Below, piece by piece: positions 38,553 through 56,734 of a DNA stretch of 64,000 bases. The translations under genes and the position numbers were made by a program. Under the pieces are notes generated by a model. It did no database searches and was not told the origin of the DNA. It saw only the letters and a list, made by a program, of their open reading frames with translations. The stretch comes from a virus. The first letter of the stretch is position 1, and every line of letters begins with the position of its first letter. The stretch spans positions 32,001 through 96,000 of IMG/VR virus record IMGVR_UViG_3300008117_000049. One strand, written 5' to 3'.

Positions 38553-38619
38553 GTTCGCTCTGGGCGAAATAAGTTTTTTTGACATTTTGGAATAAATGAC
38601 GAACACTTGGTGTTATAGT
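38553..38619 (+). promoter_or_regulatory. ClgR-type operator plus SigR/SigH-type promoter
   Basis: GTTCGC-TCTGG-GCGAAA; GGAAT(38589)-N18-GTT overlapping TATAGT. Confidence 0.7.
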
Positions 38620-38737
38620 CTGTGTATCAACGAAAAACACTCCCAAAAAAAGTTTTGGAAATGGACTTGACAAAGTGGTGAAAATCACTATTGTTGATAG
38701 TAGATACAAAAAAGCGTTTTAGATAAGGAGAGACCAA

Positions 38738-39292
38738 ATGAACGCAAACACAGAAAAAACAGTAGTTGGCAAGGCACTCTATTTAGAGTTCCGCAAAGAC
38801 AACTACACCTACCAAATGGTTATCACGCCACCAGCGACTAACGCTGAAGGTGGGGTAATCCCGGCTTGTGTAATGGAGAGACGACTTTCGTCTTGGCATC
38901 CACGCAAGAACTGGAACTTTTCATCAGTTCCAACAACTGGGGACTTCGTTCTACCTCGTCAAGCGAGTGGCGAGTTCCAGCAAGAGACTGACCTAAATCG
39001 TGTAAAGCACATTTCTGCTACACACCTACACAGATTAGTTTCAAAAACCATTGACTCACTTATTCACAGAGATTGGAAGTTGTTCAAGCAACCAATCACA
39101 GTTGAGGCAACTTACAAGGATGTTGAACTTATCAAATCTGGTAAGACTTCAAACGAACTTGTTCGTAGGATTGAACGCTCTCGTAAAGCGTTTAATTTCC
39201 CAGAGGCGTTATTTGATGCACCTGCACCAGTAGCACCTGCAACACCAACTGTTGTCACCCTGACACCAGTAACTCCCGGCGTAGCAAGATAA
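38738..39292 (+). CDS. Hypothetical protein
   Basis: AAGGAG RBS; heads AAA/VWA unit. Confidence 0.7.
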   Translation: MNANTEKTVVGKALYLEFRKDNYTYQMVITPPATNAEGGVIPACVMERRLSSWHPRKNWNFSSVPTTGDFVLPRQASGEFQQETDLNRVKHISATHLHRLVSKTIDSLIHRDWKLFKQPITVEATYKDVELIKSGKTSNELVRRIERSRKAFNFPEALFDAPAPVAPATPTVVTLTPVTPGVAR

Positions 39293-39306
39293 GGAGACCA
39301 ACCAAA

Positions 39307-40341
39307 ATGACTACACCAAACACAAATCCAACCTCACAAGAGTGGGTTGAAAACCAGCGTAGGATTCACGAGAACCTACCAGTCATGCTCAGCGCAGTTG
39401 TTGGGCAAGTTCTAAATCCAGTTGTCGCATCTGACCTAAACTTAGGTTATGACGAGACAGCAGGTAAAGCAGTTATTCGCAATCGTGATAACGCCAACAC
39501 TGAGAAAGCAGGAGTTCAAGTGACGCAAGTCGACGCTCTTGCTGGTGAAAGTTTTTATGTTCGCCCTAATGGACAGAAATACTTCACTCGTAAGTGGGGG
39601 CAACACACAGATGTTGAAGTTGCTCGTAGCCAGCGAGCAAGTGCGACTGGAAAGTCAATCTTGCTTTATGGTGCACCGGGCACTGGAAAGACAGCAATGT
39701 TTGAAGGTGCTTTTGGTGACGACCTAATCACAGTTCTTGGAACTGGCGACACCGAAGTTGGCGACCTAGTTGGTGGCTATGTTCAAACAATCGCTGGTGG
39801 CTTTGAGTGGGTGGATGGGCCGCTAGTGCGAGCAGCAGAAGAGGGCAAAGTCCTACTGATTGACGAGATTGGTTTGATTGACCCCAAAGTTCTTTCAGTC
39901 GTCTATGGTCTTATGGATGGTCGTAGAGAACTCAAAGTAACTGCCAACCCTGAACGAGCAATCGTTAAGGCTAAGGATGGTTTCTTCGTGGTGGCTGCTA
40001 CTAACCCTAACGCTCCCGGAGTAAATCTTTCTGAGGCTCTACTCTCTCGCTTTGGTATTCAAGCAGAAATGACTACTGACTGGACACTTGCTCGTAAGTT
40101 AGGAGTTCCAGCACAAGCAGTAACTTGTGCACAGAACCTAGCCAAAAAGCAACAGTCTGATGAAGTCAACTGGTCACCACAAATGCGTGAGTTGCTAGAT
40201 TACAGAGACATCTCTGCTGAACTTGGTGCAGACTGGGCAGTCTCTAACTTGATTGCCCAAGCACCAGTTGAAGACAGAGCGATTGTCGCTGATGTATTTA
40301 CTCGTGTCTATGGCACAGAGTTCAAGCCAGCCAAAATCTAG
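39307..40341 (+). CDS. MoxR/CobS-like AAA+ ATPase
   Basis: GAPGTGKT, WVDGPL, LLIDE, ATNP, LSEALLSRF. Confidence 0.88.
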   Translation: MTTPNTNPTSQEWVENQRRIHENLPVMLSAVVGQVLNPVVASDLNLGYDETAGKAVIRNRDNANTEKAGVQVTQVDALAGESFYVRPNGQKYFTRKWGQHTDVEVARSQRASATGKSILLYGAPGTGKTAMFEGAFGDDLITVLGTGDTEVGDLVGGYVQTIAGGFEWVDGPLVRAAEEGKVLLIDEIGLIDPKVLSVVYGLMDGRRELKVTANPERAIVKAKDGFFVVAATNPNAPGVNLSEALLSRFGIQAEMTTDWTLARKLGVPAQAVTCAQNLAKKQQSDEVNWSPQMRELLDYRDISAELGADWAVSNLIAQAPVEDRAIVADVFTRVYGTEFKPAKI

Positions 40342-40480
40342 GTCTCCGATTTTGGCTCGTGTGTGGGGTGGCTTACCCTTAGATTTCCGCCCCACACACA
40401 CCCTAAAAATCTGGGAATAAATCTTGACATTTTTTAGTTTTATACAGTAAAGTAGTAGTAACAAGAAAAGGAGTTCAGAA

Positions 40481-42376
40481 ATGAGCCACTACAAAGTAAG
40501 CACCAAAACCATTGGTCGCACCCACCCTGACTGGTTGAAAGTCAATGCCAGCGTTGGCAAGATTGTCAACAAATGGTCGCTACGCCAAGACCTAGTTGTA
40601 GGTCTAGTTGAGGACACCACCATTGGTGCACCTGCGTGTTTCAATCCTGCCACAGCAGAGATTGAAGTTTGTATCAGCAAAGCGTTTGGCAATGTTGAGC
40701 CAAAAGAAGTTGGCGAACTTACACACCGAAAAAATCAACTTAAGCACCCAACTGCTACTGGTGCTATTTTCCACGAGGCACTCCACGCTAGGATTTCTCG
40801 CTGGTCATTAGAGCAAGCAGCAAAAGATTTAGATGCAAGACACTTGCGTTTCTTGCATGCTATGGAAGAGGGTCGCATTGAGTATTGGGGTTGCGTATTT
40901 GTTCCAGAGAACAGATTGCTACTTCGTGCTTGTGCAATGGAAATCGTTATGGCAGAACTTGACGAGCAAGTTAAAAATGTTTCAAAAGTAGACGCTGCTG
41001 CCTTTACTGCTCTGCTCACTCTTGCGAGAGTAGACGCTGGCGTTTTGGATGCAAATGATGTTCCAGAAGTTGTTATGGAAATCCTGCACGAGGTTCTTGG
41101 TAAAGAGACCATTGACCAGTTGCGTGAAATCTGGAAAGAGTTCCAAGCACACAGCGACCACGAAAACGCATTACCACTTTACGAACTTACAAATCGTTTC
41201 ATTGAAGTTCTTGATGCACGCAAAGATGAAGTTGGCGAGAAACCAACTGAAACACCAAAAGGTGGTTGCGAGTATCCGGGTGGAGAGAGTGGCACACCAG
41301 AACCGGGCACATCAAAGCCGAGCGAGGATGGCACACCTACACCAAGCAACGAACCTACTGACGAGCAAGTCAAGCAGTTCAAGAAGTTCATTGAGCAAGT
41401 CAAAGACGCAGTTGAAGAAATGAAAGACATTGTTCAGATTGCCAACCAAGACGACATCAATGACGAGATTGACATGGATGAACGCAAAGAAGAAGTCGAG
41501 CAAAGAGACAAAGCACACGAAGAAAAGAAACATCGTGACAAGATTGCTGACGAAGTTTTCTCTGCTGGTTCTCACATAACTGGAATTAGAACCAACTCTG
41601 TTCTTCAAGACTCTCGCTCACCTAAGCCAGAAGAACTGGCAGCAGCCAACAAAGTTGCTAACGCTTTGCGTAAAGCAAAGTATCGTGAGCGTTCACAAGT
41701 TCGTGCTGGTAGCGTTGTTCCACCAGGTCGCTTGCGTTCTCGTGCAGTTGTTCAGCGTGAGGCTCTTAAGGCTAAGGGCGTTGTATCTCCGATTGAAACT
41801 TGGAGACGCACACAGCGTAAGCAAACAGAAGACCCAACATTAAAGGTTGGCGTTATGGTGGACATTTCTGGTTCTATGAAACCAGCAATGCAACCAATGG
41901 GCATTACTGCGTGGATTATGTCAGAGGCAGTTCGTAGGATTCAGGGCAAGTGTGCAATGGTCTATTACGGTCAGAATGTATTTGCCACTCTTAAGCCGGG
42001 ACAGAAGTTGGACAAAGTGAAGACTTTCACTGCCACCGACTCAACCGAAGAGTTTGCCAAAGCGTTCAAGGCTCTTGACAGTGGCTTGGGTCTAACCAGT
42101 GGAGACGGTGCGAGATTGCTCGTAGTTGTTTCTGACGGTAGATACCGTAGCGACCAGCAAGCATACGCCAAGCAGTTGCTCAAAGAGGCTGACCGTAAGG
42201 GCGTGGCTATCTTGTGGCTGACATTTGACGGTAAGACTGGCTACGCTAAGTCATACCTAGACGGAACAAGTGGCGAGATTGTATCGCTCAACAGCACCGA
42301 GTCGCCAGTCAAAGCAGCGCAGGTAATCGGACAGACCGCGGCCAAAGTGGTCTCGGCAATCGGCTCACGAGTCTAA
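40481..42376 (+). CDS. CobT-like HExxH plus VWA domain protein
   Basis: HEALH..EEGRIE; MIDAS DISGS, VVSDG. Confidence 0.82.
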   Translation: MSHYKVSTKTIGRTHPDWLKVNASVGKIVNKWSLRQDLVVGLVEDTTIGAPACFNPATAEIEVCISKAFGNVEPKEVGELTHRKNQLKHPTATGAIFHEALHARISRWSLEQAAKDLDARHLRFLHAMEEGRIEYWGCVFVPENRLLLRACAMEIVMAELDEQVKNVSKVDAAAFTALLTLARVDAGVLDANDVPEVVMEILHEVLGKETIDQLREIWKEFQAHSDHENALPLYELTNRFIEVLDARKDEVGEKPTETPKGGCEYPGGESGTPEPGTSKPSEDGTPTPSNEPTDEQVKQFKKFIEQVKDAVEEMKDIVQIANQDDINDEIDMDERKEEVEQRDKAHEEKKHRDKIADEVFSAGSHITGIRTNSVLQDSRSPKPEELAAANKVANALRKAKYRERSQVRAGSVVPPGRLRSRAVVQREALKAKGVVSPIETWRRTQRKQTEDPTLKVGVMVDISGSMKPAMQPMGITAWIMSEAVRRIQGKCAMVYYGQNVFATLKPGQKLDKVKTFTATDSTEEFAKAFKALDSGLGLTSGDGARLLVVVSDGRYRSDQQAYAKQLLKEADRKGVAILWLTFDGKTGYAKSYLDGTSGEIVSLNSTESPVKAAQVIGQTAAKVVSAIGSRV

Positions 42377-42484
42377 TCGGCTCGTGTAGAAGTAGGGGCT
42401 GGCAAGAGAACGGCTAGCCCTTACTTCAAACCTTAACGGCAAGCCTAACGGCTTGCCTTAGATAGAAAGAATAGGAGACTAACG

Positions 42485-42889
42485 GTGGGACAGTATCACA
42501 GATTAGTTAACATAGATAAGCAAGAGTGGGTAGACCCTCACGGATTAGGTCTAGGGTCAAAGCAGTATGAGCAAACGGGTTGCGATGCATCACTAGCAGA
42601 CGCAATGTATGTGCTTGTAATGACAAGCCCTGATAGTGGTGGTGGAGATTTCCCCATGACAGACATTTCTGGTCGCTGGGTAGGCGACAGAGTTTTGATT
42701 GTGGGAGATTACACAGACAAAGACGCAGTGCCCGGATTTGTTGGGGCTGACGCTATTTATCAGTTGGCAGAGGCTCAATACAAAGACATTACCCCTGATG
42801 TTCGCAAAGCGTTGAGCAAAGTGTTCAGGATTGAATACAGCACAACGACTATGGGCAATCATACATTTTGGAACAGAGTTCTGGAATAA
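42485..42889 (+). CDS. Conserved phage hypothetical protein
   Basis: MGQYH..VNIDK.E; GRWVGDRV..VGDY. Confidence 0.7.
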   Translation: MGQYHRLVNIDKQEWVDPHGLGLGSKQYEQTGCDASLADAMYVLVMTSPDSGGGDFPMTDISGRWVGDRVLIVGDYTDKDAVPGFVGADAIYQLAEAQYKDITPDVRKALSKVFRIEYSTTTMGNHTFWNRVLE

Positions 42890-43046
42890 ACCAAACGCAA
42901 AGAGTCCCCTGATTTTTCAGGGGATTTTTTGTTGCACCTGGGGTAATACTTTTTCCATGCGAGAGGTTTGTTCCATGCTTCGCATGGAAAAACCAATAAC
43001 CTGCGTTTCCTTATGTTTTTTCTTCGTTTGAAGGTGTCGTCTTCTT

Positions 43047-43113
43047 GTTCGCTCAGGGCGAACAGAAAAATACTTGCCAAAGGGAAGAAAATGTCAGCGT
43101 AGTGTGTTATCTT
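43047..43113 (+). promoter_or_regulatory. Perfect ClgR-type operator plus SigR/SigH-type promoter
   Basis: TGTTCGC-TCAGG-GCGAACA; GGAAG(43083)-N18-GTT overlapping TATCTT. Confidence 0.72.
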
Positions 43114-43149
43114 TCTTGTATGGGAAATGACAAAACGATTGGAGACCAA

Positions 43150-43434
43150 ATGCAATACTCAACTCTTTTTCCAAAGGTAACCCTAGTAAAGCGTTCACAG
43201 GGACAGCGTGGGCAGTATGGGGCTAGAAAAGCCTACATGATTTACATAAGGCAGTTAAACCCCACAGGGCGTTGGTGCGTCTTTATGTCTTGGGGCAGAG
43301 AAGAAGCACCTAACTCTTGGATGGGCAGTGAAAAGATTTTTGCGACAGAGCAGGAGGCAGTTGCTTTTGCTTGGGATAAGTTCTACGAAAAGATTGACAA
43401 AGGCTACACAGAAAAAGTCTTGAAAAATAGTTAA
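43150..43434 (+). CDS. WGR-domain-like protein
   Basis: Y.I....WCVFMSWGR....F....A...EKIDKGY; GGAGA RBS. Confidence 0.7.
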   Translation: MQYSTLFPKVTLVKRSQGQRGQYGARKAYMIYIRQLNPTGRWCVFMSWGREEAPNSWMGSEKIFATEQEAVAFAWDKFYEKIDKGYTEKVLKNS

Positions 43435-43515
43435 AAATAAACTTGACATTTGGGAATAAATCCTGAATAATCATAGTTATAGTTATTATAGAAGTTCTTT
43501 TGAAAGGAGAACAAA

Positions 43516-43845
43516 GTGGAAAGACTAGGAATCCACACTGAGTCAGCAAAGGCTCAGTTGCTAACAACCCCAATCAAGTTTGACTTGGCTGGTAAATCAG
43601 GAGTCACCATTGACTCTTTCGCTAACGCTGAGGGCGAGGCTATTTATCGTCTTCAATGGACTGACTATGTAGTAAATGAGTGGAACGAGTTTTACGCAAC
43701 TCTTTCTCTTGCTCTTGCTCGCGTAGCAGTTCTATCTGCCTGTATCGAAGAAGACTTAAAGAACGAAGAAACATTGTTCTTTAAGAGCGACTCCGAGACT
43801 TTCGCAAACCACGCATACAACTTCATAAGCAACGAGGTGAAATAA
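43516..43845 (+). CDS. Hypothetical protein
   Basis: GAAAGGAG RBS, own promoter. Confidence 0.65.
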   Translation: MERLGIHTESAKAQLLTTPIKFDLAGKSGVTIDSFANAEGEAIYRLQWTDYVVNEWNEFYATLSLALARVAVLSACIEEDLKNEETLFFKSDSETFANHAYNFISNEVK

Positions 43846-44150
43846 TGACTGACAACAGAACCCACCCTTGCCCAACTTGTGATGGGCAGATTCCGAACAA
43901 CGAAACTCCCGGAGCATACCCCGGTGCTATCTCACGCAAGGATAACAAAACAGAAATCTGTTCTGCGTGTGGAATGAACGAGGCTTTCGCAGATTACAAA
44001 AAGCAACTCAGGGAAGTTTCTGGGATTGTTTGGCAGTCAACTGTTTTGGCAGAAATGGTTGAGCACCTAAACGACAACGAGATTTCATTACTCGTCAACG
44101 CTCTCAATGACGCAGTTGCCGAAATCTGCGAGTCCTACGACATAAAGTAG
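43845..44150 (+). CDS. Zn-finger phage protein
   Basis: CPTC...YPGAISRKDNKTEICSACG. Confidence 0.65.
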   Translation: MTDNRTHPCPTCDGQIPNNETPGAYPGAISRKDNKTEICSACGMNEAFADYKKQLREVSGIVWQSTVLAEMVEHLNDNEISLLVNALNDAVAEICESYDIK

Positions 44151-44235
44151 AAACTCTGGGTGTGGGGTTGCCAAGTGTCAGCCCCACACTCTATAATAAA
44201 ATACATAACAACTCTCTTGAAAGGAGAACTGCCAA

Positions 44236-44646
44236 ATGGCAAACTACTACGCAACAGAAAGAACCAACTACTTCTTGGTTAACAACGAAGAGGGGTTCTT
44301 AGAAGATGTCCAAACTTTTTTGGGCAACCACGAAATCCTTAGAAAAGAAAAGGATGGCAAAACTTATTTTGCGATTCTTGGGGATTATGAAAATGGGCAA
44401 GGGCTACCTGCTTATTACGAACACGAAGGCGACACATTTGAGTTAGAGTGGGCTGACTTTTTCAAAGCACACTTGGCAGAGGGTTCTGTCGCAATCATCA
44501 TGCACGCTGGTAACGAGAAAATGCGTTATGTAATGGGCTATGCTCACGCTTACAACTGGAAAGGCGAAGTTAAGACTATTGACCTGCGTGACATTTACGA
44601 ACTTGCCAAAGAACTTGGCAACGACATTACAGAAGTGGAGTTTTAA
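44236..44646 (+). CDS. Hypothetical protein
   Basis: RTNYF...GNEKMRY; GAAAGGAG RBS. Confidence 0.65.
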   Translation: MANYYATERTNYFLVNNEEGFLEDVQTFLGNHEILRKEKDGKTYFAILGDYENGQGLPAYYEHEGDTFELEWADFFKAHLAEGSVAIIMHAGNEKMRYVMGYAHAYNWKGEVKTIDLRDIYELAKELGNDITEVEF

Positions 44647-44841
44647 ATGGGTAAGCAAGTTTATTTCGTAGTCTATGCCGACTTAGATACCAAAGAACTA
44701 ATCGTTGATGATGGAACTTTGGAGGCTCGTTTCAACGAGGGTTCTATTTGGAACACCGAAACTAACGAGTGGGAAGACGAGGCTAAAATCAGCGAACTGG
44801 CTGAGGCACAAGAAATCCTTAAAAAAGGTTTAGTGGACTAA
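44647..44841 (+). CDS. Hypothetical protein
   Basis: ORF track. Confidence 0.5.
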   Translation: MGKQVYFVVYADLDTKELIVDDGTLEARFNEGSIWNTETNEWEDEAKISELAEAQEILKKGLVD

Positions 44842-44948
44842 CCATTGACAAGCGAAAGCCACTTGCCCTATACTTGTAGGGTGAGTGGTAATCGCCATTC
44901 ACAACAAAGTGTAAAATGATTTATAGAAAAGATTGAGGTGAAAAAATC

Positions 44949-45215
44949 ATGAAGAAATACATTGTAGTTGCAGAAGTGAACTTTGAAGTTTATGACACTG
45001 ACGAGTTCTCCGCTGAAAGACAGGGGCTTATTGCCCTAGCCAGATTTGTTGGCGACCCAGACGCAAGGGGGTATGACAACGAATACGCAGACTTGCCAAC
45101 TCCGTCTATCCACCCAGTTACAATCAGGGTTGAAGACGAGAATGGAAAGTTCTTGGCTGGCTCTACACCAGCAACCTTAAACAAGGTTGAAGACAAAGAA
45201 GAAACAGCAGAGTAA
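44949..45215 (+). CDS. Hypothetical protein
   Basis: GAGGTG RBS. Confidence 0.55.
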   Translation: MKKYIVVAEVNFEVYDTDEFSAERQGLIALARFVGDPDARGYDNEYADLPTPSIHPVTIRVEDENGKFLAGSTPATLNKVEDKEETAE

Positions 45216-45245
45216 TCTGCCTCAAACAGAAAGACAAAGAGACAA

Positions 45246-45524: not shown

Positions 45525-45544
45525 AAAACATAAGGAGAGACGAA

Positions 45545-45682
45545 ATGAACACATTGCTGAGGCTATCTGCCGAATCCACAGTGGACATCTACCTACTTGC
45601 TGAAAGTGAGGAGTTGATTGCTCTAATCAAACAGAACAAGCCATACACCGAACTTTTGGAGTGGGTTAACGAGAACTTCTAG
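45545..45682 (+). CDS. Small hypothetical protein
   Basis: AAGGAG RBS before ATG 45545. Confidence 0.55.
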   Translation: MNTLLRLSAESTVDIYLLAESEELIALIKQNKPYTELLEWVNENF

Positions 45683-45747
45683 TTCTCTTAGAGCGAACAA
45701 AAAACTTTGGCGTTTTGGAATAAAATGTCAGTGTTGTAGGTTATAGT
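45682..45747 (+). promoter_or_regulatory. ClgR-type operator plus SigR/SigH-type promoter
   Basis: GTTCTC-TTAGA-GCGAAC; GGAAT(45717)-N18-GTT overlapping TATAGT. Confidence 0.68.
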
Positions 45748-45799: not shown

Positions 45800-46123
45800 A
45801 TGAAAAAGCCACTAACAAACATAATCAAGGGCAAGACCGTAGAAGTTGGTTTTGACCACAATGTCCGAGTTGCATTGGACAAGTTCAGCGAGGCTCTGGA
45901 GGCTAAGAAGTTAGCCGACAAAGCCAAAGAAGAGGCTGAGGAAGTCTTAAGACTTGCTCTCGGTGACGCAGAGTTCGCTACCATTAGCGGACAAAAGGCG
46001 TTCAAAATGATGCAGGTAATTATGGACAGACCAGACCTTAAGAAACTTCAAGCGGAGTTTCCAGAGGTCTACACCGCAGTCGCAGTTGACGGCTCTTACG
46101 AGTTCATCAGAGCGATAAACTAA
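45800..46123 (+). CDS. Hypothetical protein, resembles C-terminal helical part of YqaJ-type proteins
   Basis: Coiled coil then DLKKLQAEFPEVY. Confidence 0.55.
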   Translation: MKKPLTNIIKGKTVEVGFDHNVRVALDKFSEALEAKKLADKAKEEAEEVLRLALGDAEFATISGQKAFKMMQVIMDRPDLKKLQAEFPEVYTAVAVDGSYEFIRAIN

Positions 46124-46127
46124 AAAC

Positions 46128-46288
46128 TTGGTGGGCAGTGTTTCACTTCCTTTCAAATCACTGGCACTGCCCACCAAACAAACTCCGTTAGGTTTCACTT
46201 CCATTTTCCTAACGGCACGGCAAGCAAGAACCTGCCCTTTCTGTTTGCCAGCCCCTAACCGTATGACGCGGTTAGGGGTTTTACTTTT
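46128..46288 (+). ncRNA. Multi-hairpin RNA with anti-SD-like loops and terminator
   Basis: Two stems each displaying TTTCACTTCC, third C-rich loop, then terminator. Confidence 0.5.
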
Positions 46289-46289
46289 A

Positions 46290-46567
46290 ACGGCTTGCCT
46301 AGAACGGCTAGCCCCTAACGGCTTGCCCTTTGTAGAAATGACGGCAAGCCTTTTACGCAAGCGTAGAACGCTTGACGGGAGACTTGACGGGTGCTTATAG
46401 CACAAGCGTAGAACGCTTGACGGGTCGCTTTTATGTAATAGACGCACACAAACCCTAACGGGTCGTGTTTTTGCACCTGCAGAAGCAGAGTGGCTGAGGG
46501 AGAAGAAATAACATAAGCAACGCACAAGAGGAAGAAGCAGAAGCAGAAGCAGAAGCAGAAGCAGAAG
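46290..46567 (+). repeat. ACGGCWWGCC array, 22-bp direct repeat and (AGAAGC)n tract
   Basis: Four ACGGCWWGCC; CAAGCGTAGAACGCTTGACGGG at 46358 and 46403; AGAAGC x5.8 at 46533-46567. Confidence 0.8.
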
Positions 46568-46770
46568 AAACAATGCACATTGCGAAATAAAGCATAAGAA
46601 AGCATGAGGCAAAAATCTGGGATACCAGATTTTCCATGCAACCCAGAAGTCCATGCTTCGCATGGAAAAATAAGGGACCCGGATTTTTACCTTTGAGATT
46701 TGGATGCAGAGGCGAAGATGAGATTTTTTTGTTCTTATGTTTTTAATTTGAGTTTGGAGAAGATTTTTTT

Positions 46771-46836
46771 GTTCGCTCTGGGCAAACAAAAAGTTTTCCT
46801 GTTTGGGAAGATTTTGTCTGGGGTTGGAGTTATTGT
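46771..46836 (+). promoter_or_regulatory. ClgR-type operator plus SigR/SigH-type promoter
   Basis: GTTCGC-TCTGG-GCAAAC; GGAAG(46806)-N18-GTT. Confidence 0.65.
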
Positions 46837-46854: not shown

Positions 46855-47007
46855 ATGAACCATAAAGTAGAGATACACATTGGCAATGTCAATGTGGGTA
46901 ATCACTTCTTCGCTACGCTAGATGAGGCTAACGCCTTTGTTGAACTATTCAACTCATCTAAGCACAGCCTAGATAACTCGCTGGCTATGTATGTGAACGC
47001 TTACTAA
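46855..47007 (+). CDS. 50-aa hypothetical protein
   Basis: AGGAGGTG RBS; MNHKVEIHIGNVNVGNHFFATLDEANAF... Confidence 0.6.
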   Translation: MNHKVEIHIGNVNVGNHFFATLDEANAFVELFNSSKHSLDNSLAMYVNAY

Positions 47008-47206: not shown

Positions 47207-47387
47207 TCGCCACTAAAAGTCGCTCACTAGAAATAGTGGGCGATTTTTTTTGCATCCGAACTTGGCTGGGCCGGGGATTCCATAGTGCATGGAAAAACAG
47301 GGGACCGGGAAACTTGATGCGTCTTGCCTCAACTTCTATTTATTTGTTGTCTTATGTTTTTTCTCCAGGGCCTGGAGGCTTCTTAGC

Positions 47388-47453
47388 GTTCACTGAGGGA
47401 GAACAAAAAAAGTTGGCACATGGGAATAAAAAAGTAATGTATTGGGTTATTAT
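47388..47453 (+). promoter_or_regulatory. Degenerate ClgR-type operator plus SigR/SigH-type promoter
   Basis: GTTCAC-TGAGG-GAGAAC; GGAAT(47423)-N18-GTT. Confidence 0.6.
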
Positions 47454-47473: not shown

Positions 47474-47848
47474 ATGGATAACTTAGAGACAAAAGTCACG
47501 CTTAACAGCGACTGCACTTGCGTTGATGAAGATGACAACTTCATTGAAGAGTGTTTTGGTTGTTGGGATGATTCCAAGTATGACTTGGACTTACTTGTTA
47601 AAGAGGTTCAGGCTGATAAAGGCTGGACAGATGAGACAGAGGTTCAGGTTGAATACAGGGGAGTATCTTGGCGTAGAGTATCTGGCGATTTTGTTATGGC
47701 GTTCAACGCTGATGACTTAATCAAGAGGTTCTCGCTCAATGGCGACTTCAAGTTGGTATTTACTTATGCCAATGGCGAGTTGGTATTGGTTCGCTATTCT
47801 CATGATGAGCCTGTTGGGACAGGCAACATCACTTTCAAGGCTATCTAG
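47474..47848 (+). CDS. Hypothetical protein
   Basis: GGAGGTG RBS; C-terminal SHDEPVG. Confidence 0.65.
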   Translation: MDNLETKVTLNSDCTCVDEDDNFIEECFGCWDDSKYDLDLLVKEVQADKGWTDETEVQVEYRGVSWRRVSGDFVMAFNADDLIKRFSLNGDFKLVFTYANGELVLVRYSHDEPVGTGNITFKAI

Positions 47849-48166: not shown

Positions 48167-48459
48167 TCTCAAAACAAAAGTCCCGCGTTGGAAGACGCGG
48201 GATTTTTTGTGCCGTTTTTTGTGGGGTAGGGATTTTTCCATGCCATCCATGAGCATGGAAAAACACGCCACCCGGCTCCGACCTGAGATGGAGAAGAGTT
48301 CTTGTCAGTGTGCTGGTGTATCTCGGAAAAAACATAAGAACACCGAAAACCTGTGCGATAGGCAAAGATAACGATTTGGTAACGAAAGAAAAAAGTTTGC
48401 TGTTCGGGAATAAAAAGTCAGTGCGACCTGTTATAGTTAGTATGAAAGGAGGTAGTCAA

Positions 48460-48918
48460 ATGACTATCACATCACCCACCCCGGCTCGCCCGGCCTCTGA
48501 AAAGCAGGTTGCTTTTCTCAAAACCCTTATTAGCGAAAGGGCAAACGACCTTGTTGTTGATTTTGCCACTCTCACTTCTAAGCAAGCCAGCGACCTTATT
48601 GGTTCGCTAATCTCCGCCCCACGCAACAACGCCCCTGTTGCTGAAGGTATGTATCGCAACGCCAATGGCGTTATCTACAAGGTTCAAGCAAGTCGAGAGA
48701 CAGGCAACCTTTACGCAAAAGTCCTTGATGTTGCTGAACGCAAGTTCATCTACGAGCAGGGCGCTATGCGTGGTCTAACTGCCGAAATGCGTATGACTAT
48801 TGAAGAGGCGAAAGCCTTTGGCGTTGAATACGGTTTCTGCGTATGGTGCGGTAAGTTCCTTACCGACCCTGTATCAGTTGCTCAGGGTATCGGCCCGGTT
48901 TGTGCGGGTAGGGTCTAA
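48460..48918 (+). CDS. DUF6011-like Zn-finger protein
   Basis: PASEKQ N-terminus; CVWCGKFLTDPVSVAQGIGPVC. Confidence 0.72.
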   Translation: MTITSPTPARPASEKQVAFLKTLISERANDLVVDFATLTSKQASDLIGSLISAPRNNAPVAEGMYRNANGVIYKVQASRETGNLYAKVLDVAERKFIYEQGAMRGLTAEMRMTIEEAKAFGVEYGFCVWCGKFLTDPVSVAQGIGPVCAGRV

Positions 48919-49066: not shown

Positions 49067-49392
49067 ACGGCTCGCCCCTAGAAAGCCCTTGCTGGAAACG
49101 GCAAGGGTTTTTCTTTATCTGGAACGGCTGGCTTGCTGAACACCGTTAGCAGTTCTAACGGCTCGCCTTTGACGGCAAGCCTGTATAAAAGCCAACGGCT
49201 AGCCTTTGACGGCTCGCCCTATAAGCCAACGGCTAGCAACTAACGGCTAGCCTTTAAAACACTAACGGCAAGCCTTTTTGACGGCTTGCCTTTTACAAAC
49301 TAACGGCAAGCCTTATAAGAGATAAAAAGCCAACGGTGAGCCTTTTTACGAGTGGTATGTAGGTAGGCGTGAAAAAAGCCAACGGTAAGCCT
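49067..49392 (+). repeat. Dense oriented ACGG(C/T)NNGCC array
   Basis: About 14 same-strand copies; core spacing alternates 14-16 and 20-23 bp. Confidence 0.85.
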
Positions 49393-49614
49393 TTTTAATG
49401 ATTAATTACAAATAAAAATACAGAGGCATTGCGTCTGGAAAAGTGGAGAAGAAAAACGCAAGAGGGAGAAAAAACATAAAAATACGAAGACATGGGAGAA
49501 AAAATGCGAAAAGAGGCGAAAGGAAAAAAAGGCAACCCAGGCTGGCCTGGGGGACTTTATTACATAAGCATCTGGTTTGGAAGACTTGCATTTCTGGAAG
49601 ATTTATGTAGTTCT

Positions 49615-50283: not shown

Positions 50284-50344
50284 ATAACAGGTTGGTAACA
50301 AACATAACACTTGGGAAGTTATTGGCAAGTTATCTGGTTTTAAT
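50284..50344 (+). promoter_or_regulatory. MtrA-type direct repeat plus SigR/SigH-type promoter
   Basis: ATAACA-GGTTG-GTAACA; GGAAG(50314)-N18-GTT. Confidence 0.6.
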
Positions 50345-50366
50345 TAAGTAGAAAGGTGGTGAAAAT

Positions 50367-50480
50367 ATGGACACTAATGTTTGCGAAACCCCTTGGTGTG
50401 ACCACGAATTAAGTGGCGATAACATCAAAAGTTGGGCTGGCAAGAATGGTTATTGTGATTCTTGCTGGTTGCTGGGCTAA
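50367..50480 (+). CDS. 37-aa Cys-rich peptide
   Basis: GAAAGGTGG RBS; CETPWC...YCDSCW; followed by terminator. Confidence 0.55.
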   Translation: MDTNVCETPWCDHELSGDNIKSWAGKNGYCDSCWLLG

Positions 50481-50742
50481 ATAGTTCAGTTTAGATTTCC
50501 CCGAATCAGTTGGTTCGGGGATTTCTATTTAATCTGCTTCTGCAACTCGGATGCAACTCGGATGGAGGGTGCGAAAGTTTCCTGCCGTGTGCATGGAAAC
50601 CCAGGGGACCTGGAATTTCTTCTGCATCACGGGAATCTTTGCGTCAAGAAGTTTGTTGCGTTTGGAGATTATTATAATGATTTGATAACGACAGGAATAA
50701 ATACGGGGGATTATCCGTTTATGTTAGTGAGATAGAAAGGAA

Positions 50743-50925
50743 GTGATTACTATGCCGATACTAAACAGCAAGGGCGAAGCCTTTATTGAGTGCGGGGGTT
50801 GCGGAAACCTATTTGACCCAAGCACCGAAGTAAAGATTTACGAAACCCACGACTGCGAAACCTACAATGTTTGTAGTGATGAATGCGGTTGTGGCGACCC
50901 CGGGTGCGACACAATAGCAAAGTAA
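50743..50925 (+). CDS. Cys-rich small protein
   Basis: ORF track; GAAAGGAAG RBS; own promoter and terminator. Confidence 0.6.
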   Translation: MITMPILNSKGEAFIECGGCGNLFDPSTEVKIYETHDCETYNVCSDECGCGDPGCDTIAK

Positions 50926-51215
50926 TAACTGAATACCGCAAGTGCCAACTCCATTCGGGGTTGGCATTTGTGTTTAACGCCGAAACCCAGAGAACGCAGG
51001 TGGATGCTGAATTATTTTGAGCCGGGGTTCCTAGAATTTCCATGCCCGGTTTTTCGTTTGGATACGCCGTCATTCGCTGTGATGAGTGGTGGGGCTTCCT
51101 CATCTATAACATAAGAGAACGCCGACTTGTGTGATAACGATTTATAACGATTTGATAACAACGCCGATGCTTGGGAAGTTTTTGTCGGGGGCGGGGGTTA
51201 TTATAACTATGAAAG

Positions 51216-51497
51216 GTGGTGATTACTATGGAACTAAATGACGCGGGGCAACAAGTTGTTGGTGGTATTCCACAAACTAAACTTACGCCGAGTGACCTTG
51301 TTAAGTATTGGGGTGCGATTATTGGTGCGAACACCGATGGCGACCTAGCAACTTGGCAACACGACACAACTATCGTCAACATCTTTACCTCAAACCAAGA
51401 TGGAACTTACGACTTCTCAACTTACATAGAAGAAGACTTAGAGGGCCGGGATTTGGATTTTGTGATGGAGATGGTCGACCAGCAGTTGTTTATCTAA
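51216..51497 (+). CDS. Hypothetical protein (start probably 51228)
   Basis: GAAAGGTGG RBS; own promoter. Confidence 0.6.
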   Translation: MVITMELNDAGQQVVGGIPQTKLTPSDLVKYWGAIIGANTDGDLATWQHDTTIVNIFTSNQDGTYDFSTYIEEDLEGRDLDFVMEMVDQQLFI

Positions 51498-51574
51498 ACC
51501 AATGCCGAACCCTCTGGGAATAATTTGTCAGGGGGTTCGGTTATTATTCTTTTACACCGAGAGGAGGTGGGACT

Positions 51575-51808
51575 ATGGAACTAACAGCAGTAGAAGAGCA
51601 AGCAGTAAAGGCTATCTACACCGATTATCACAATGGGACAACTAACGCCGATGAAGCGTTGCACGCTTTGGAGCAACTAATCAATGGTGGACTATTGCCT
51701 TGCGATAAGTGCGGGGAGAAGATAGAAGCAGATACACACGCCGAAGAACTTGGTATGTGCGTTGAATGCTCAAACGCTTTCTTTACTCACAAAGACGAGG
51801 CAAACTAA
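51575..51808 (+). CDS. Small Zn-finger protein
   Basis: GAGGAGG RBS; CDKC..CVEC. Confidence 0.6.
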   Translation: MELTAVEEQAVKAIYTDYHNGTTNADEALHALEQLINGGLLPCDKCGEKIEADTHAEELGMCVECSNAFFTHKDEAN

Positions 51809-51985
51809 CACCGAATCTTCCAAACACGACCCTCAACTCAGGTTGGGGGTTTTGTTTTGCTGGGCTCGGCTGGGTGGGCTGCCGAATTTTCCATTCCCTA
51901 AACGCCGTGTTATTTTATTTTTAGAAAAAGTATTGACATCCGCTGGGGCAATGTTTATAATAAAGTTATGCGAAAGGAGGAACTC

Positions 51986-52198
51986 ATGCATGAATACGAA
52001 AAAACTTTACAAAAGTTATGTGCCGAACTTGTTGTTGAGCAAGGAAAGAACGCGGTTTTTGACTTCGTGAAGCAAAATCATAGAGAACTGAGTTGGTATT
52101 TCTGTCTGGAATGCAAAAGTGAGTGTCCTGCGACATCAAATCAAGTTTGTTTGGTGTGCGGTGCAAACATTTTTGATGAAGACGACCCAACCATCTAA
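51986..52198 (+). CDS. Small Zn-finger protein
   Basis: AAGGAGG RBS; CLEC..CLVC. Confidence 0.55.
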   Translation: MHEYEKTLQKLCAELVVEQGKNAVFDFVKQNHRELSWYFCLECKSECPATSNQVCLVCGANIFDEDDPTI

Positions 52199-52551
52199 AA
52201 AGTATCCCGTATTGGAGAAAAAAGCCGATGCGGGATAGTTTTTTGTTCGCCATGGGCATGGAAAATGCGGCGACCCTGACTTGACTTTTGTTTTATTATC
52301 TGGGACAATGTAATCAACAACCAATACCGAAAGGAGATGAAAATGGAATACGAGTTTCTATTTACGATGTGGGAGTGCACCGCTTGTGCTCACCTTTACA
52401 ATAACGAGCAAGAAAAATGCACGAACTGCCACAACGAGTGCAAACCTATAAAAATTAAAGGCGTAAGAGCCTAAACCCCCGTTATCAAATTGTTATGAAC
52501 TGCCGATAGAAATACTTGACTAATTTGTGCCGTAGGGTATAGATTTGCTGT

Positions 52552-52764
52552 ATGGCAACAAAATCTCTCGGAAAGGAGAACGCAATGAAAATTGTTATTG
52601 CTTTGCTAGGTATGTGGTGTTTTTGGAATTGTCTTCGCATCACCGACCAACTCGGACACGCCTTTATCTTTGGTGGAAACTTACCTGCTCTATGGGCTGG
52701 GCTTTTGCTTTTCTTCTCTGGGTTTGTGGGCTGTGTAGTGTATCTGTTTGGAAACAGGGAATAA
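52552..52764 (+). CDS. Small membrane protein (start probably 52585)
   Basis: Two hydrophobic segments; GAAAGGAG RBS. Confidence 0.55.
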   Translation: MATKSLGKENAMKIVIALLGMWCFWNCLRITDQLGHAFIFGGNLPALWAGLLLFFSGFVGCVVYLFGNRE

Positions 52765-52815
52765 AATGTCTGCCGTTTTAGTTATAGTAATTATCAAGAA
52801 AGGAATTGATAACTA

Positions 52816-53031
52816 ATGGAAAAAACAAAAATAAGAGTAGAACTGATTTCTACTTCCGACCCTTATACAAATCTAACTAAGGGTGCATTAGGAACTAAGG
52901 TGATGGAATACATTGACCCTTGGGGATACCGAACAATTGTAGTGCAATGGGACAATGGCTCTAACCTAAGTCTTATCGAAGGTTCGGGAGATAGTTGGAG
53001 AGAGATTACGGAAGTGGTGGATAATGTATAA
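52816..53031 (+). CDS. DUF4314-like protein
   Basis: RVELIS.SDPY..L..G..GT...ID..G....VQWDNGSNLSLI...D. Confidence 0.7.
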   Translation: MEKTKIRVELISTSDPYTNLTKGALGTKVMEYIDPWGYRTIVVQWDNGSNLSLIEGSGDSWREITEVVDNV

Positions 53032-53227
53032 CTATTCATCAGCAACTTATACAGTCACTCTGACCACAAACTCTACGAGTTACATTACGAGTGTTACAAC
53101 ACCGACAACTGACCAAGAAGAAATTATTGACTTGGCGATAGAACGCATAAAAGAAGAAGATGGTTTTGACTTATCTAATCACAAGTTAGTTGATACCGAT
53201 GTAGAAGTATTGGAAGTGTGGGACTAA
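53024..53227 (+). CDS. Hypothetical protein
   Basis: Coupled ORF. Confidence 0.5.
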   Translation: MYNYSSATYTVTLTTNSTSYITSVTTPTTDQEEIIDLAIERIKEEDGFDLSNHKLVDTDVEVLEVWD

Positions 53228-53505
53228 TGAGTGCTACCGATTACAACGACCTAAGCCGACACATAGGACACGATGTAGTAGTTGTGACCTATGCCGATAC
53301 TAATGTCGCCATTGAGTGCGAAGAGTGTAGTGAAGTGCTACTGGACTTTGACAAAGAAGTTGAGTGCGAGAACCACACTTGGACTTTACAAATGAACATA
53401 GCCAACACCCCGACACAGAACTGGTGCGAAGAGTGTGGAGCAACTGAACCTGCCGACCCTGAAGATGTGGCAGAACAAATCCGACTATTAGGAGAGAACG
53501 ACTAA
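53227..53505 (+). CDS. Hypothetical Zn-binding protein
   Basis: HIGHDVVVVTY..NVAIECEECSEVL. Confidence 0.6.
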   Translation: MSATDYNDLSRHIGHDVVVVTYADTNVAIECEECSEVLLDFDKEVECENHTWTLQMNIANTPTQNWCEECGATEPADPEDVAEQIRLLGEND

Positions 53506-53628
53506 TGAACGATAAAGAAAAAGAACTAATCAACAATAAAGAAAAAGCGTTGATAAATGTTAGAACCATTCAGATTTGTTTGCGTATGGGTTTGACTATG
53601 GAACAAATTAAGAAAGTGCTGGATAAAA

Positions 53629-54021
53629 ATGAATCAGGAAACTAAAATCAACACCGAAAGATTATCCCCTGAGTTTTATGTCTGGGAAACTGGATACGAA
53701 GAAGTCTGGGCTGATAAAGATAATCCATTTTTCGTAGTGCGAAATGGCGAAATGCGTATCCACAAAACCGAAAAAGATGGAAGTGTAAAGATAATCAGAT
53801 ACACCGATGCTTTGCTAAAAGAAATCAGCAACGATGGGGAACTTAGCAAATTGTATGAACAAGATGAAGAACTGCTAACAATAGTTATGAACCCTTGGTT
53901 TGAGATTTACTCTATCCATCACACCGACTACTACTCTGAGCCGTTTTCTGAACTGGACAAGGCGATAGATTACGCAAGAGAAATGCTGGTGAAGTATCCC
54001 GATGGGATAGTTACCGACTAA
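53629..54021 (+). CDS. Hypothetical protein
   Basis: GEMRI..IRYT..NPWFE. Confidence 0.6.
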   Translation: MNQETKINTERLSPEFYVWETGYEEVWADKDNPFFVVRNGEMRIHKTEKDGSVKIIRYTDALLKEISNDGELSKLYEQDEELLTIVMNPWFEIYSIHHTDYYSEPFSELDKAIDYAREMLVKYPDGIVTD

Positions 54022-54122
54022 AAGAGAGAAAGAGAAACTGGCTTGGGAAACCGAGCCTTTTTCTTTATGCCGAAGATGGCGTGGGCAGCCTGTTTTTCCG
54101 TTCACAATGCTACCTTTGTAGC

Positions 54123-54395
54123 ATGTCCTTTCACTCTGCTACACCGATAAAACTGCTTGACGCGTTTGATGAACGCATCTCTTTTCTTTACTTCCTTTCA
54201 GGTGGGGTGCATGATGGGAGAATAGTTCTGATTTCCTCGTTGGCGAGGCAGGATTATGAAGAAACAAGTGTCTTTCTCTGTAATGATTTGGAGGGAGATG
54301 ATGTGGACTGGGGTAATTCGTTATCAACTATCCCGTATGTGGATACCGAAGATGCACTCAACAGGATAGGATACACAACGAAGATTTCCTCTTGA
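54123..54395 (+). CDS. Hypothetical protein
   Basis: ATG 6 nt below TACCTT; in ORF 54081..54395. Confidence 0.45.
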   Translation: MSFHSATPIKLLDAFDERISFLYFLSGGVHDGRIVLISSLARQDYEETSVFLCNDLEGDDVDWGNSLSTIPYVDTEDALNRIGYTTKISS

Positions 54396-54449
54396 CATGG
54401 AAAAACCTGCCGCCTACAATAAAACACAAGACGATAATGACAAAAGGAG

Positions 54450-54953
54450 ATGCCGATGGGCACGACTGTTGATGGATTGAAGCCGACTCACGCCGTAGGA
54501 GAGTCGTTCAGTAGAAATGTGTGGGGCTGGACTCCACTGAAGAACTATGTTCTTGAAAATCACAACAAATACGAGAAAGCCTTTCTTGATGGCAAACTCA
54601 CTAAACTCCAAGCAAGCAGACTGGCCGATGCTCTGTTTGAAGACATCGCAAGTGGCAAGGCCGAGAAATATGCCGATAACTTTATGCTCACTGTAAAAGC
54701 AGAGCCAACTGTCGTATGTGAAATCTGTGCTGGCACTGGTATTCGTGCCGATGAACTTGGAAAAGAAAAGGGTATGGACAAGATGGAGTTAGTGGCTCTG
54801 CTTGCCGAACAAGTTGGTAGGACACACGGATATTGCAATGGCTGTGGTGGGTTTGGCTCAAGGAAGACCAACAACAGTAGTTATTACTTAGAAGTAGAAG
54901 ATATCCAAGAGTTCGCCGAGTTTCTCAAAAACTCAGGTGGAGCAAACTGGTAA
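54450..54953 (+). CDS. DnaJ-type CxxCxGxG protein, paralogue 1
   Basis: FSRNVWGWTPL, CEICAGTG, CNGCGGFG, EFAEFL.NSGG. Confidence 0.7.
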   Translation: MPMGTTVDGLKPTHAVGESFSRNVWGWTPLKNYVLENHNKYEKAFLDGKLTKLQASRLADALFEDIASGKAEKYADNFMLTVKAEPTVVCEICAGTGIRADELGKEKGMDKMELVALLAEQVGRTHGYCNGCGGFGSRKTNNSSYYLEVEDIQEFAEFLKNSGGANW

Positions 54954-55046
54954 AAAATCTTTTGCGACACGCTTGACAAATGTCAGTGCCGTTGTGTAGA
55001 TTTCATATATACCAAATGGTAACAACAAACGATTGGAGAAAATACT

Positions 55047-55562
55047 ATGGGTATGGATGTATATGGCAAGAGCCCTAAGAACGAAACTGGCGAGTACTTC
55101 CGCCGTAATGTTTGGGGCTGGCGACCACTCTGGGACTACTGCGTTGATAACTTCAACGACCTAGTTGGCGAAGTATCTGGACATTACAACGATGGCGATG
55201 GATTGAACAACGCTGGCAGTTTGGAACTAGCACGCCGAATTAGAGAACAACTAAAAACTGGTGAGGCTAAGGATTACATTGAAAAGCGTAATTCTCGTTT
55301 AGCATCACTTGAACGACCTAACTGCGAACTCTGCCAAGGAACTGGTATTCGTACCGATGCACTTGGCGTAGAGCACAAGATGCCGATTAGAGAACTTTCA
55401 CCTGAGATGGCATCACTAACTAATCGCACACATGGTTGGTGTAATGGTTGCGATGGCGAAGGTAAGAAAGATGCGTGGGAAACTTCCTACTCACTTGACC
55501 TTGATGATTTAGAAGAGTTTGCCGAGTTCCTAGAGAACTCTGGTGGATTTGAGATTTGCTAA
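55047..55562 (+). CDS. DnaJ-type CxxCxGxG protein, paralogue 2
   Basis: FRRNVWGWRPL, CELCQGTG, CNGCDGEG, EFAEFLENSGGFEIC. Confidence 0.7.
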   Translation: MGMDVYGKSPKNETGEYFRRNVWGWRPLWDYCVDNFNDLVGEVSGHYNDGDGLNNAGSLELARRIREQLKTGEAKDYIEKRNSRLASLERPNCELCQGTGIRTDALGVEHKMPIRELSPEMASLTNRTHGWCNGCDGEGKKDAWETSYSLDLDDLEEFAEFLENSGGFEIC

Positions 55563-55843
55563 TGAAAGAGCAAACACAACTCACGAAAGGAGGGGTAAAA
55601 GTGAGAGCAAATATGACAAAAAAGAACGCCGATGCTAGTTGGGATTGGTTTGTTGCTATGTACACAAAGCGTGGCTACAAATCTCTAAACCAATTTGCGA
55701 TGGCTACTGGAATGCAGAAAAGCAGTCTAAGTAGATACTTCCATCAGCAACGACAGTTGCCGTCAGGTATGATGGCAAAACTCTGCCAAGAACTCAAAGT
55801 CACGCCAAACGAGATGATGAAAGCACTTGGTATGTGGCAGTAA
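55556..55843 (+). CDS. XRE-family HTH protein (start uncertain)
   Basis: SLNQFAMATGMQKSSLSRYF...P....LCQELKV. Confidence 0.68.
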   Translation: MLMKEQTQLTKGGVKVRANMTKKNADASWDWFVAMYTKRGYKSLNQFAMATGMQKSSLSRYFHQQRQLPSGMMAKLCQELKVTPNEMMKALGMWQ

Positions 55844-56011
55844 ACCCCGCTATTTAGTAGCAAACACCTGAGCCAAGTGTCTAAACTGGCTCTTTTTACA
55901 CATAAACACCGATTTATGTGGGTAAAATATTACCTATAACTGAATATGTATTGGGAGAACCAAAACAAACAACGACCAAGTACTAACTAACAAGGAAAGG
56001 TAGGTCGCCTA

Positions 56012-56593
56012 ATGAAATGGTTGCTGACAATAACAATGGCTTTGTTGCTCAATGGGTGTGTATCATCTTCGGCAATAGCAAGTCAGTTAGCAAAAGATGA
56101 AGTGACAAGGAGTGTGGAAACTCAACAAATTGTCGCATCAAAGAACATTTTCAATAACCCCGTAATATCTAAATCCACTTCGTTTGCGAAGTATGCGGAA
56201 AGTATTGAAAATAGAAAAAAACTGAATAAAGTCGTAATCCGATTAATACACCGAGTAGGTAAAACCCCCTATGTTCCGACTGGTTCATCTATTTATGGGT
56301 GGGACTGCTCTGGGATGGTCAGATGGGCTTACGAGCAACTGGGTGTAGAAGTACCACACTCAGCAACAGCACAAGCGTATGTTGGTGAAAGAGTATCTAA
56401 GAAAGAACGAAAAGTTGGAGATATAGTAATCTTTGGCTATCGTGGCTCTAAGAGTTTCTACCACTCCGCTATTTACATTGGTAAGGACAAGGTAGTAAAT
56501 GCCAATCGTGGATTTGGTGGAACTCACATACAGCCACTCTCCGATTACGAAAACAACAGAATAATCTATGTTCGGGTAATACCGACTGCGTAA
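56012..56593 (+). CDS. Exported NlpC/P60 peptidoglycan hydrolase
   Basis: Signal/lipobox LNGC; GKTPYV, DCSG, GDIV, HSAIYIG. Confidence 0.88.
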   Translation: MKWLLTITMALLLNGCVSSSAIASQLAKDEVTRSVETQQIVASKNIFNNPVISKSTSFAKYAESIENRKKLNKVVIRLIHRVGKTPYVPTGSSIYGWDCSGMVRWAYEQLGVEVPHSATAQAYVGERVSKKERKVGDIVIFGYRGSKSFYHSAIYIGKDKVVNANRGFGGTHIQPLSDYENNRIIYVRVIPTA

Positions 56594-56734
56594 AGATAAA
56601 CTTCAGGAACTCCCCGTCAGAAATGGCGGGGATTTCTCCTTCCTGGGCCGCCATTTTTTCTGTGCGTTTCCACTTGACAATGGGAATAAATTCCTATAAG
56701 TTTTAGTTATTGAATACATACCGAAAGGATTCAA

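Follow-up and report, generated by a model that had tools for sequence, protein, structure and literature searches.

The stretch of DNA analyzed here (64,000 nucleotides, hereafter the window) corresponds to bases 32001-96000 of IMG/VR record IMGVR_UViG_3300008117_000049, a complete phage genome of 135,336 bp with direct terminal repeats that is rated 100% complete and has a G+C content of 42%. Between the endolysin gene (36664-37440) and the terminase gene (62384-63793) of the window lies a cluster of promoters built on the motif GGAA[TG]-N18-GTT, each of which appears to head a short rightward unit of small genes that turn over rapidly; these promoters, and the sigma factor that might read them, are the subject of this analysis. 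The phage, which looks lytic, gave no match when 19 kb of it were compared with GenBank phages by megablast. Its large terminase subunit (TerL) shares 77% identity with the one of Actinomycetia phage DSL-LC01, 63% with those of large Microbacterium phages and 48% with those of Gordonia phages. Because the genome carries two WhiB-family genes, its relatives are actinophages and the sequencing runs linked to the record are lake-water metagenomes, the window is part of a large phage of a freshwater actinobacterium; among the runs listed, no RNA run contained the phage. An earlier interpretation of the same letters (the sequence-only reading) had adopted an actinobacterial frame, for which the WhiB genes and actinophage relatives show it was well advised.

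The promoter cluster contains the following features, given in coordinates of the window, with ORF denoting an open reading frame and aa its length in amino acids.

38548..38574, plus strand: upstream hairpin, conserved, GTTCGC-loop-GCGAAC with an A/T run after it, part of a longer repeat at cassette boundaries; 38554-38568 is terminator-like
38589..38619, plus strand: promoter 1 (GGAAT), GGAATAAA-N15-GTTATAGT; before a 184-aa ORF at 38738-39292, which is followed by a MoxR-type ATPase gene at 39307-40341
38667-38694, plus strand: sigmaA-type promoter between promoter 1 and the ORF at 38738-39292
40414..40444, plus strand: promoter 2 (GGAAT), before the gene for a VWA protein at 40481-42376; GT is followed by a hexamer other than TAnnnT
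40424-40453: sigmaA-type promoter TTGACA-N18-TAAAGT, interleaved with promoter 2
43083..43113, plus strand: promoter 3 (GGAAG), before an ORF at 43150-43434
43453..43483, plus strand: promoter 4 (GGAAT), before an ORF at 43516-43845; overlapped by TTGACA-N17-AATAAT at 43443-43471
45717..45747, plus strand: promoter 5 (GGAAT), before an ORF at 45800-46123
46806..46836, plus strand: promoter 6 (GGAAG), before an ORF at 46855-47007 whose ATG at 46855 is preceded by a ribosome-binding site (RBS)
47423..47453, plus strand: promoter 7 (GGAAT), before an ORF at 47474-47848
48407..48437, plus strand: promoter 8 (GGAAT), before an ORF at 48460-48918
50314..50344, plus strand: promoter 9 (GGAAG), before an ORF of 37 aa whose start is at 50367; hexamer other than TAnnnT
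50632..50657, plus strand: a match to the bare pattern that has neither the AAA nor the TAT extension; probably a chance match and not counted as a member
50694..50724, plus strand: promoter 10 (GGAAT), before an ORF at 50752-50925; TAnnnT is one base out of register
51174..51204, plus strand: promoter 11 (GGAAG), before an ORF ending at 51497
51517..51547, plus strand: promoter 12 (GGAAT), before an ORF at 51575-51808
52758..52788, plus strand: promoter 13 (GGAAT), before an ORF at 52816-53031
54973..55002, plus strand: promoter of the other, canonical sigmaA type, TTGACA-N18-TAGATT
56683..56713, plus strand: promoter 14 (GGAAT), before ORFs at 56735-56944 and 56944-57768; the hexamer is TATTGA
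43042-43068, 45677-45703, 46766-46792 and 47383-47409: further copies of the hairpin (repeat families D1, D6 and D7)

All 14 promoters had been listed by the sequence-only reading, and each of its coordinates proved to be an exact plus-strand match to the motif. Its statement that each lies upstream of an RBS and an ORF likewise holds for 14 of 14, with an RBS-like word and start codon 31-149 nt after GGAA. A fifteenth true member, also followed by an RBS-like word and start codon, is found on the minus strand at genome position 96509 (window position 64509, 509 bases past the end of the window). The comparison with shuffled sequence that the earlier reading had called for revealed a clear enrichment: the motif matches 18 times in the window, as against 4.98 ± 2.35 times (maximum 12) in 100 dinucleotide shuffles, none of which reached 18. 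Across the whole genome there are 25 matches (18 on the plus and 7 on the minus strand), compared with 10.1 ± 3.1 (maximum 20) in 100 Markov simulations; when a leading G is required, 13 matches remain against 2.1 ± 1.4 simulated. Matches that resemble chance occurrences and have no extended consensus lie at 50632 on the plus strand and at 46150, 46202 and 60013 on the minus strand.

The spacing between the two halves of the motif is equally distinctive. On the plus strand of genome positions 70000-89000, a gap of N18 yields 15 matches, while any other gap between N12 and N24 yields 0-4 (3, 3, 1, 2, 1 and 0 for N12 to N17; 1, 0, 2, 0, 1 and 4 for N19 to N24). Alignment of the 15 sites, anchored on GGAA, gives tGGGAAtAAAt.gtca-N-GTTAT.gT..a.T.Ta, the common form being tGGGAA(T/G)AAA-N15-GTTATnnT. 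GGAA and GTT at N18 are present in all 15 sites; the fifth base is T in 11, G in four and C in none, GGAA is preceded by G in 12 of 15, and GGAA[TG] is followed by A in 12 of 15. The conserved parts consist of GGGAA(T/G)A at approximately -37 to -31, GTT at approximately -14 to -12 and the 18-nt gap, which is rigid in length; the bases that fill it vary freely, but neither the cores nor the gap length do. Intergenic GGGAA[TG]A sites that have no GTT are absent. The 14 sites and the one outside the window are best read as real paralogous promoters of a second class.

Nine canonical sigmaA-type sites (TTGACA-N16-18-TAnnnT on the plus strand, matching at least 10 of 12 positions) occur at 37499, 38667, 40424, 43443, 44168, 44845, 51933, 54392 and 54973, and the host primary sigma factor therefore evidently reads the usual consensus in this region. 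At the position of the -35 hexamer, 16-18 nt before the -10, the GGAAT sites carry GAATAA or AATAAA rather than anything resembling TTGACA. The GGAAT sites are a separate promoter class interspersed with canonical ones, two of them (40414 and 43453) being interleaved with a canonical site and a third (38589) being followed by one.

A sigmaA signature is nevertheless embedded in the second class. The sequence-only reading had remarked that GTT overlaps a sigmaA -10 element in most sites, and TAnnnT indeed stands in register at 10 of the 14 sites it listed (10 of 15 with the extra site). In the clade formed by this phage (G000) and its relatives G405, G404 and G407, none of which has a sigma gene, the fusion takes the form of GTT followed by ATnnT, which supplies G at -14, T at -13 and a TAnnnT hexamer. 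Of the elements of an extended -10 promoter, G at -14 is present in all 15 sites and T at -15 in three. The in-register hexamer is found at 5 of 10 sites in G405, 1 of 3 in G404 and 8 of 15 in G407, for a clade total of 24 of 43, and is clearly selected. Orthologous sites in G405 retain GGAAT-N18-GTT where TAnnnT has been lost (5 of 10) or where the position of an embedded TTGACA differs by one base; the GGAAT-GTT geometry is therefore the more constrained feature. By our own arithmetic from the alignment, the transcription starts predicted under sigmaA and under an extracytoplasmic function (ECF) sigma factor lie only ~2 nt apart.

The Streptomyces SigR consensus is part of the general background against which the second class can be compared, and the sequence-only reading had equated the motif with that consensus and called it a close match to mycobacterial SigH/SigE promoters. 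The motif is indeed of the actinobacterial SigH/SigR type: its core equals the Corynebacterium glutamicum SigH consensus, given in PMC10012870 as gGGAAta and GTT (GGAAT-N18-19-GTT). The elements gGGAAta and GTT and the 18-nt gap are shared with promoters of C. glutamicum SigH, mycobacterial SigH and Streptomyces SigR alike. The same text reports that SigH prefers T at -31 and tolerates any base there, whereas SigE requires C, and it lists an rshA promoter with GGAAGA-N17-GTT and mshC and trxB1 promoters with GGAATA-N17-GTT (PMC10012870). The phage sites parallel this C. glutamicum SigH pattern in preferring T as the fifth base and tolerating G (PMC10012870). Since that position is T or G and never C, SigE is an unlikely reader of the sites. 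The phage promoters depart from those of host SigH/SigR regulons in that 15 copies stand before small genes that have no known function, and in that a sigmaA-type -10 usually follows; in addition, the base before GTT is C in only 1 of 43 clade sites, where the host consensus prefers T or C.

As an alternative to a host factor, the sequence-only reading had suggested a phage-encoded ECF sigma outside the window. No such gene emerged. A six-frame search of the complete 135-kb genome with Sigma70_r2 (PF04542), r4_2 (PF08281) and TIGR02937 gave no match at E<=10. SigH-like sigmas, two from hosts and two from phages, used as phmmer --max queries against the phage, gave nothing below E=0.38 (E>0.5 for the two phage sigmas), and none of the five complete relatives (0/5) has a sigma above cut-off. 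Individual proteins were also considered and rejected as sigma factors or regulators. A 210-aa protein with two helix-turn-helix (HTH) motifs, encoded at 60904-61536 before the terminase gene, aligns to ECF sigmas over one HTH only (hhalign probability 1.4%). The 184-aa protein at 38738-39292 and a clade-specific 175/186-aa protein at 32301-32861 have no family match. Sigma motifs of the Bacillus subtilis sporulation or SPO1 type were set aside when the phage was recognized as an actinophage.

Phages that do encode such a factor use the same motif. A motif scan of IMG/VR gave mostly single chance matches; multi-copy contigs, seen on re-scanning the retrieved loci and among the matches listed, include G402, with 8 sites in 95.8 kb, and G403, with 4 sites in 87.6 kb. 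Both repeat GGAATAA-N16-GTT in front of small-gene cassettes, as the present phage does, and both belong to the same lake-phage gene pool, G403 having a WhiB-like gene; they are otherwise unrelated, with only 12 and 7 ORFs, respectively, matching this phage. Each carries an ECF sigma gene (87 bits for G402 and 80 bits for G403 to TIGR02937, cut-off 42.9), which this phage and five of five complete relatives lack. The best NCBIfam match of both sigmas is SigH_actino, at 108.7 and 100.4 bits and below the 251-bit equivalog cut-off, and in both contigs the sigma gene lies directly behind the first motif copy. The fused hexamer sets the two groups apart: TAnnnT is present at 0 of 12 sites in the sigma-encoding phages, as against 16 of 28 in G000, G405 and G404 (Fisher p=0.0009, a value that overstates independence because the sites are kin by descent), and C precedes GTT at 7 of 12 sites in the former. 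A conserved repeat resembling cctgagaaNNNcctgNgaaat precedes each GGAAT promoter in G402 (locus L188, 35500-40200) and G403 (locus L243, 84300-87100) and is absent from the cassettes of the window. The ribonucleotide reductase of the present phage (window 12574-14622, plus strand) is 77-79% identical to those of G402 and G403, a likeness that points to a common gene pool or a common host group; the phage enzyme had no match at a strict E<=1e-100 in 401 Actinomycetota genomes.

SigH-like genes are not universal among potential hosts. The G402 sigma has homologues in 209 of the 401 sampled Actinomycetota genomes (E<=1e-12), a tally that takes in the unpublished genomes G337, G269, G344, G089, G227, G149, G392, G019, G240, G121, G175, G049, G002 and G083. 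Among the 29 best host sigH-like loci, 22 have GGAA[TC]-N17-19-GTT within 450 nt upstream of the gene and on its strand, compared with 0 of 29 on the other strand; this count uses no unpublished genome, locus L309 (G337) having been dropped before counting. Small-genome loci with a SigH-like gene are either high in G+C or odd (30% G+C), and are uninformative about the host.

Comparison with relatives indicates how the second class may have arisen. A terminase scan recovered at least 599 related stretches. Forward and reverse motif counts are 14/1 in G407 (TerL 90% identical), 6/0 in G408, 2/0 in G409, 0/0 in G410 and 3/0 in G411. The close relative G407, like the present phage, has no sigma gene. 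G408 and G411 instead repeat promoters of the type CTTGACT(T)-N17/18-TAGAAT. The corresponding interval of DSL-LC01 and of Microbacterium phage Big4 is likewise occupied by numerous small genes that have individual promoters, which in the Big4 cassettes are canonical sigmaA promoters. Positions 22600-43400 of DSL-LC01 (L002) hold ~35 copies of gATTCTAAAGaTGTTATAATaGAATCa, an extended -10 bracketed by the inverted repeat GATTCTA/TAGAATC, which suggests a candidate operator for a dimeric regulator, and the paper describing DSL-LC01 makes no mention of promoters (0 occurrences of the word). Because relatives use the primary sigma for the same cassettes, the GGAAT class is a recent, clade-limited replacement.

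Taken together, these data lead us to propose, with a probability of about one half, that the hybrid promoters are read by a host SigH-type holoenzyme, with sigmaA as a back-up. GGGAA(T/G)A, GTT and the 18-nt gap are the recognition elements of actinobacterial SigH/SigR-type ECF sigmas, and, since neither the phage nor its complete relatives have a sigma gene, the predicted reader would be the host's own SigH-type holoenzyme. The phage thus probably borrows a host stress sigma. The fusion of GTT to a sigmaA -10 (G-14 and TAnnnT) could allow the housekeeping holoenzyme to fire weakly from a promoter with no -35 element, and output would rise when SigH is free. Stress may thus switch the promoters on, and infection may itself trigger the stress response, as the sequence-only reading had supposed. 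A fuller scenario, which we offer only tentatively, is that a subclade of lake actinophages rewired ~15 early-cassette promoters from the sigmaA type of its relatives to the host SigH/SigR type, and did so without gaining a sigma gene; the host's switch for thiol and heat stress, or a phage product releasing SigH from its anti-sigma, would then gate part of the infection program, with the fused sigmaA -10 acting as a fail-safe.

Several observations weigh against reading by a host SigH-type holoenzyme. Any cognate sigma is putative, the phage having none, and at the E<=1e-12 threshold 192 of the 401 Actinomycetota genomes, among them many of the 1.3-1.8 Mb genomes, have no match to the G402 sigma. 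SigH is normally held by its anti-sigma; fifteen phage promoters dependent on it would need stress or a phage trigger, and no trigger was found. TAnnnT follows GT at many sites, an element that an ECF sigma does not need, and sigmaA therefore seems to be involved; sigmaA-type promoters, moreover, stand at the syntenic cassettes of Big4, G408, G411 and DSL-LC01 (in the last case as an extended -10). Finally, the sites are a mixture of paralogues and orthologues, so their counts are not independent events.

The strongest competitor, which we regard as possible though rather unlikely, would have sigmaA alone acting on an extended -10 that has no -35 (G-14, TAnnnT), with the GGGAATAAA box at -35 being the site of a phage or host activator and its likeness to the SigH consensus a coincidence, on the model of T4 middle promoters. 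This explanation accommodates the in-register hexamer at 10 of 15 sites, where ~8% would be expected from base composition by our own estimate, as well as the invariant G at -14 and the use by the relative DSL-LC01 of TGTTATAAT, which has a different upstream box and no GGAAT. WhiB-family proteins bind region 4 of sigmaA, and the phage has two WhiB-like proteins together with many clade-specific genes that have no known function and might include an activator. WhiB genes, however, are annotated also in DSL-LC01, in which the motif is absent, and the clade-specific genes that were scanned yielded no candidate for an activator. Nor does an extended -10 account for the 5 of 15 sites here and 5 of 10 in G405 at which TAnnnT is missing yet GTT stands at exactly N18, or for the scarcity of T at -15 (3 of 15). 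The same box, gap and GTT, furthermore, recur in phages that carry a SigH-like sigma and that have TAnnnT at 0 of 12 sites.

A phage-encoded reader too divergent, or of too different a fold, to be detected by sequence is improbable. Phage sigmas can be very divergent, most of the cassette genes have no family match, and the conserved 210-aa protein at 60904-61536 contains the only region-4-like HTH seen in the phage (Pfam Sigma70_r4, 24.6 bits against a cut-off of 24.1). The resemblance of that protein to sigma factors extends to a single HTH, though, and it is kept in relatives that do not have the motif; the six-frame profile and phmmer searches of the complete genome were empty, and a non-homologous factor would need to have converged on the SigH motif. 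We consider it very improbable that the conserved block serves chiefly for recombination, as a boundary repeat by which cassettes are shuffled and whose sequence is maintained through gene conversion and not through a special sigma. In favor of such a role, the promoter is the downstream part of a longer repeat that includes conserved hairpins (families D1 and D5-D7), and genes turn over rapidly between copies: they are patchy in G407, G405 and G404, and for many of them not even G407 or G405 has a homologue. A diverged spacer between invariant cores at a fixed gap, on the other hand, is the pattern expected of binding-site selection and not of conversion, and a recombination role would be compatible with promoter function instead of an alternative to it.

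Phage early genes are normally read by the host housekeeping sigma or by a phage-made sigma. Middle promoters of phage T4 combine a MotA box with a sigma70 -10, and MotA/AsiA redirect the primary sigma. The GGAAT class resembles them in that the -35 has given way to a box specific to the phage, a primary-sigma -10 persists and a temporal class of its own is formed among early-type promoters; it differs in that no MotA/AsiA-like factor was found here, that the box equals a known ECF -35 and that GTT is fixed relative to the box. The mobile promoter and stem-loop cassettes (PeSLs) of T4-type phages carry sigma70 early promoters. They share with the present region the repeated blocks of promoter and stem-loop that flank small, variable ORFs in a hyperplastic region, a PeSL-like trait that is evident here, and differ from it in that the core here is of ECF type. 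SigH-type promoters and phage-borne ECF sigmas are already known kinds; a phage clade with no sigma gene and with ~15 SigH-type promoters hybridized to a sigmaA -10 appears to be new, and we found no description of such promoters in actinophages in the open-access full-text literature searched.

If reading by a host SigH-type holoenzyme is correct, a host stress-sigma consensus underlies 15 promoters of a phage that has no sigma gene, and a phage gene program runs on a host ECF stress sigma for which sister phages instead carry their own SigH copy. Phage expression would then be coupled to the redox or heat status of actinobacteria that abound in lakes. One gene pool also offers a natural three-way comparison between relatives with sigmaA-type promoters, the GGAAT clade that has no sigma gene and phages that encode a SigH themselves, which shows the gain and loss of promoter classes and sigma genes; the sites themselves are ready-made test promoters for SigH-type holoenzymes.

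Other features of the genome deserve mention. The pair of genes for a MoxR-type AAA ATPase and a VWA-domain protein (window 39307-42376, plus strand) is kept across the whole phage family, and the VWA protein is annotated in DSL-LC01 as a cobalamin biosynthesis protein. Dense direct repeats of the type ACGGC(T/A)(A/T)GCC occupy intergenic parts of the cassette region (46281-46352, 49149-49393 and 42444-42468) and look like iterons or protein-binding sites. A transfer-messenger RNA (tmRNA) gene at 16972-17311 (plus strand) encodes the tag peptide AESRSAFALVA; against genomes, only its last ~31 nt match, and that 3' end recurs in more than 120 contigs from many phyla (67 of the 401 genomes, a tally that takes in the unpublished G083), so that it offers no clue to the host. 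The gene at 34396-35028 (plus strand) encodes a Mom-like DNA modification protein (Pfam Mom, 156 bits; PHROG 1384). Genes for a histone-deacetylase-family protein (59481-60449, plus strand) and a P-loop/GNAT acetyltransferase (4958-6049, minus strand) are both present in G407 and in none of G408-G411, and are therefore limited to the subclade with GGAAT promoters. Finally, a gene-free stretch of 628 nt between divergent genes (31302-31929) contains several boxes resembling TTTGCGATAGTAT, and may be an origin or control region.

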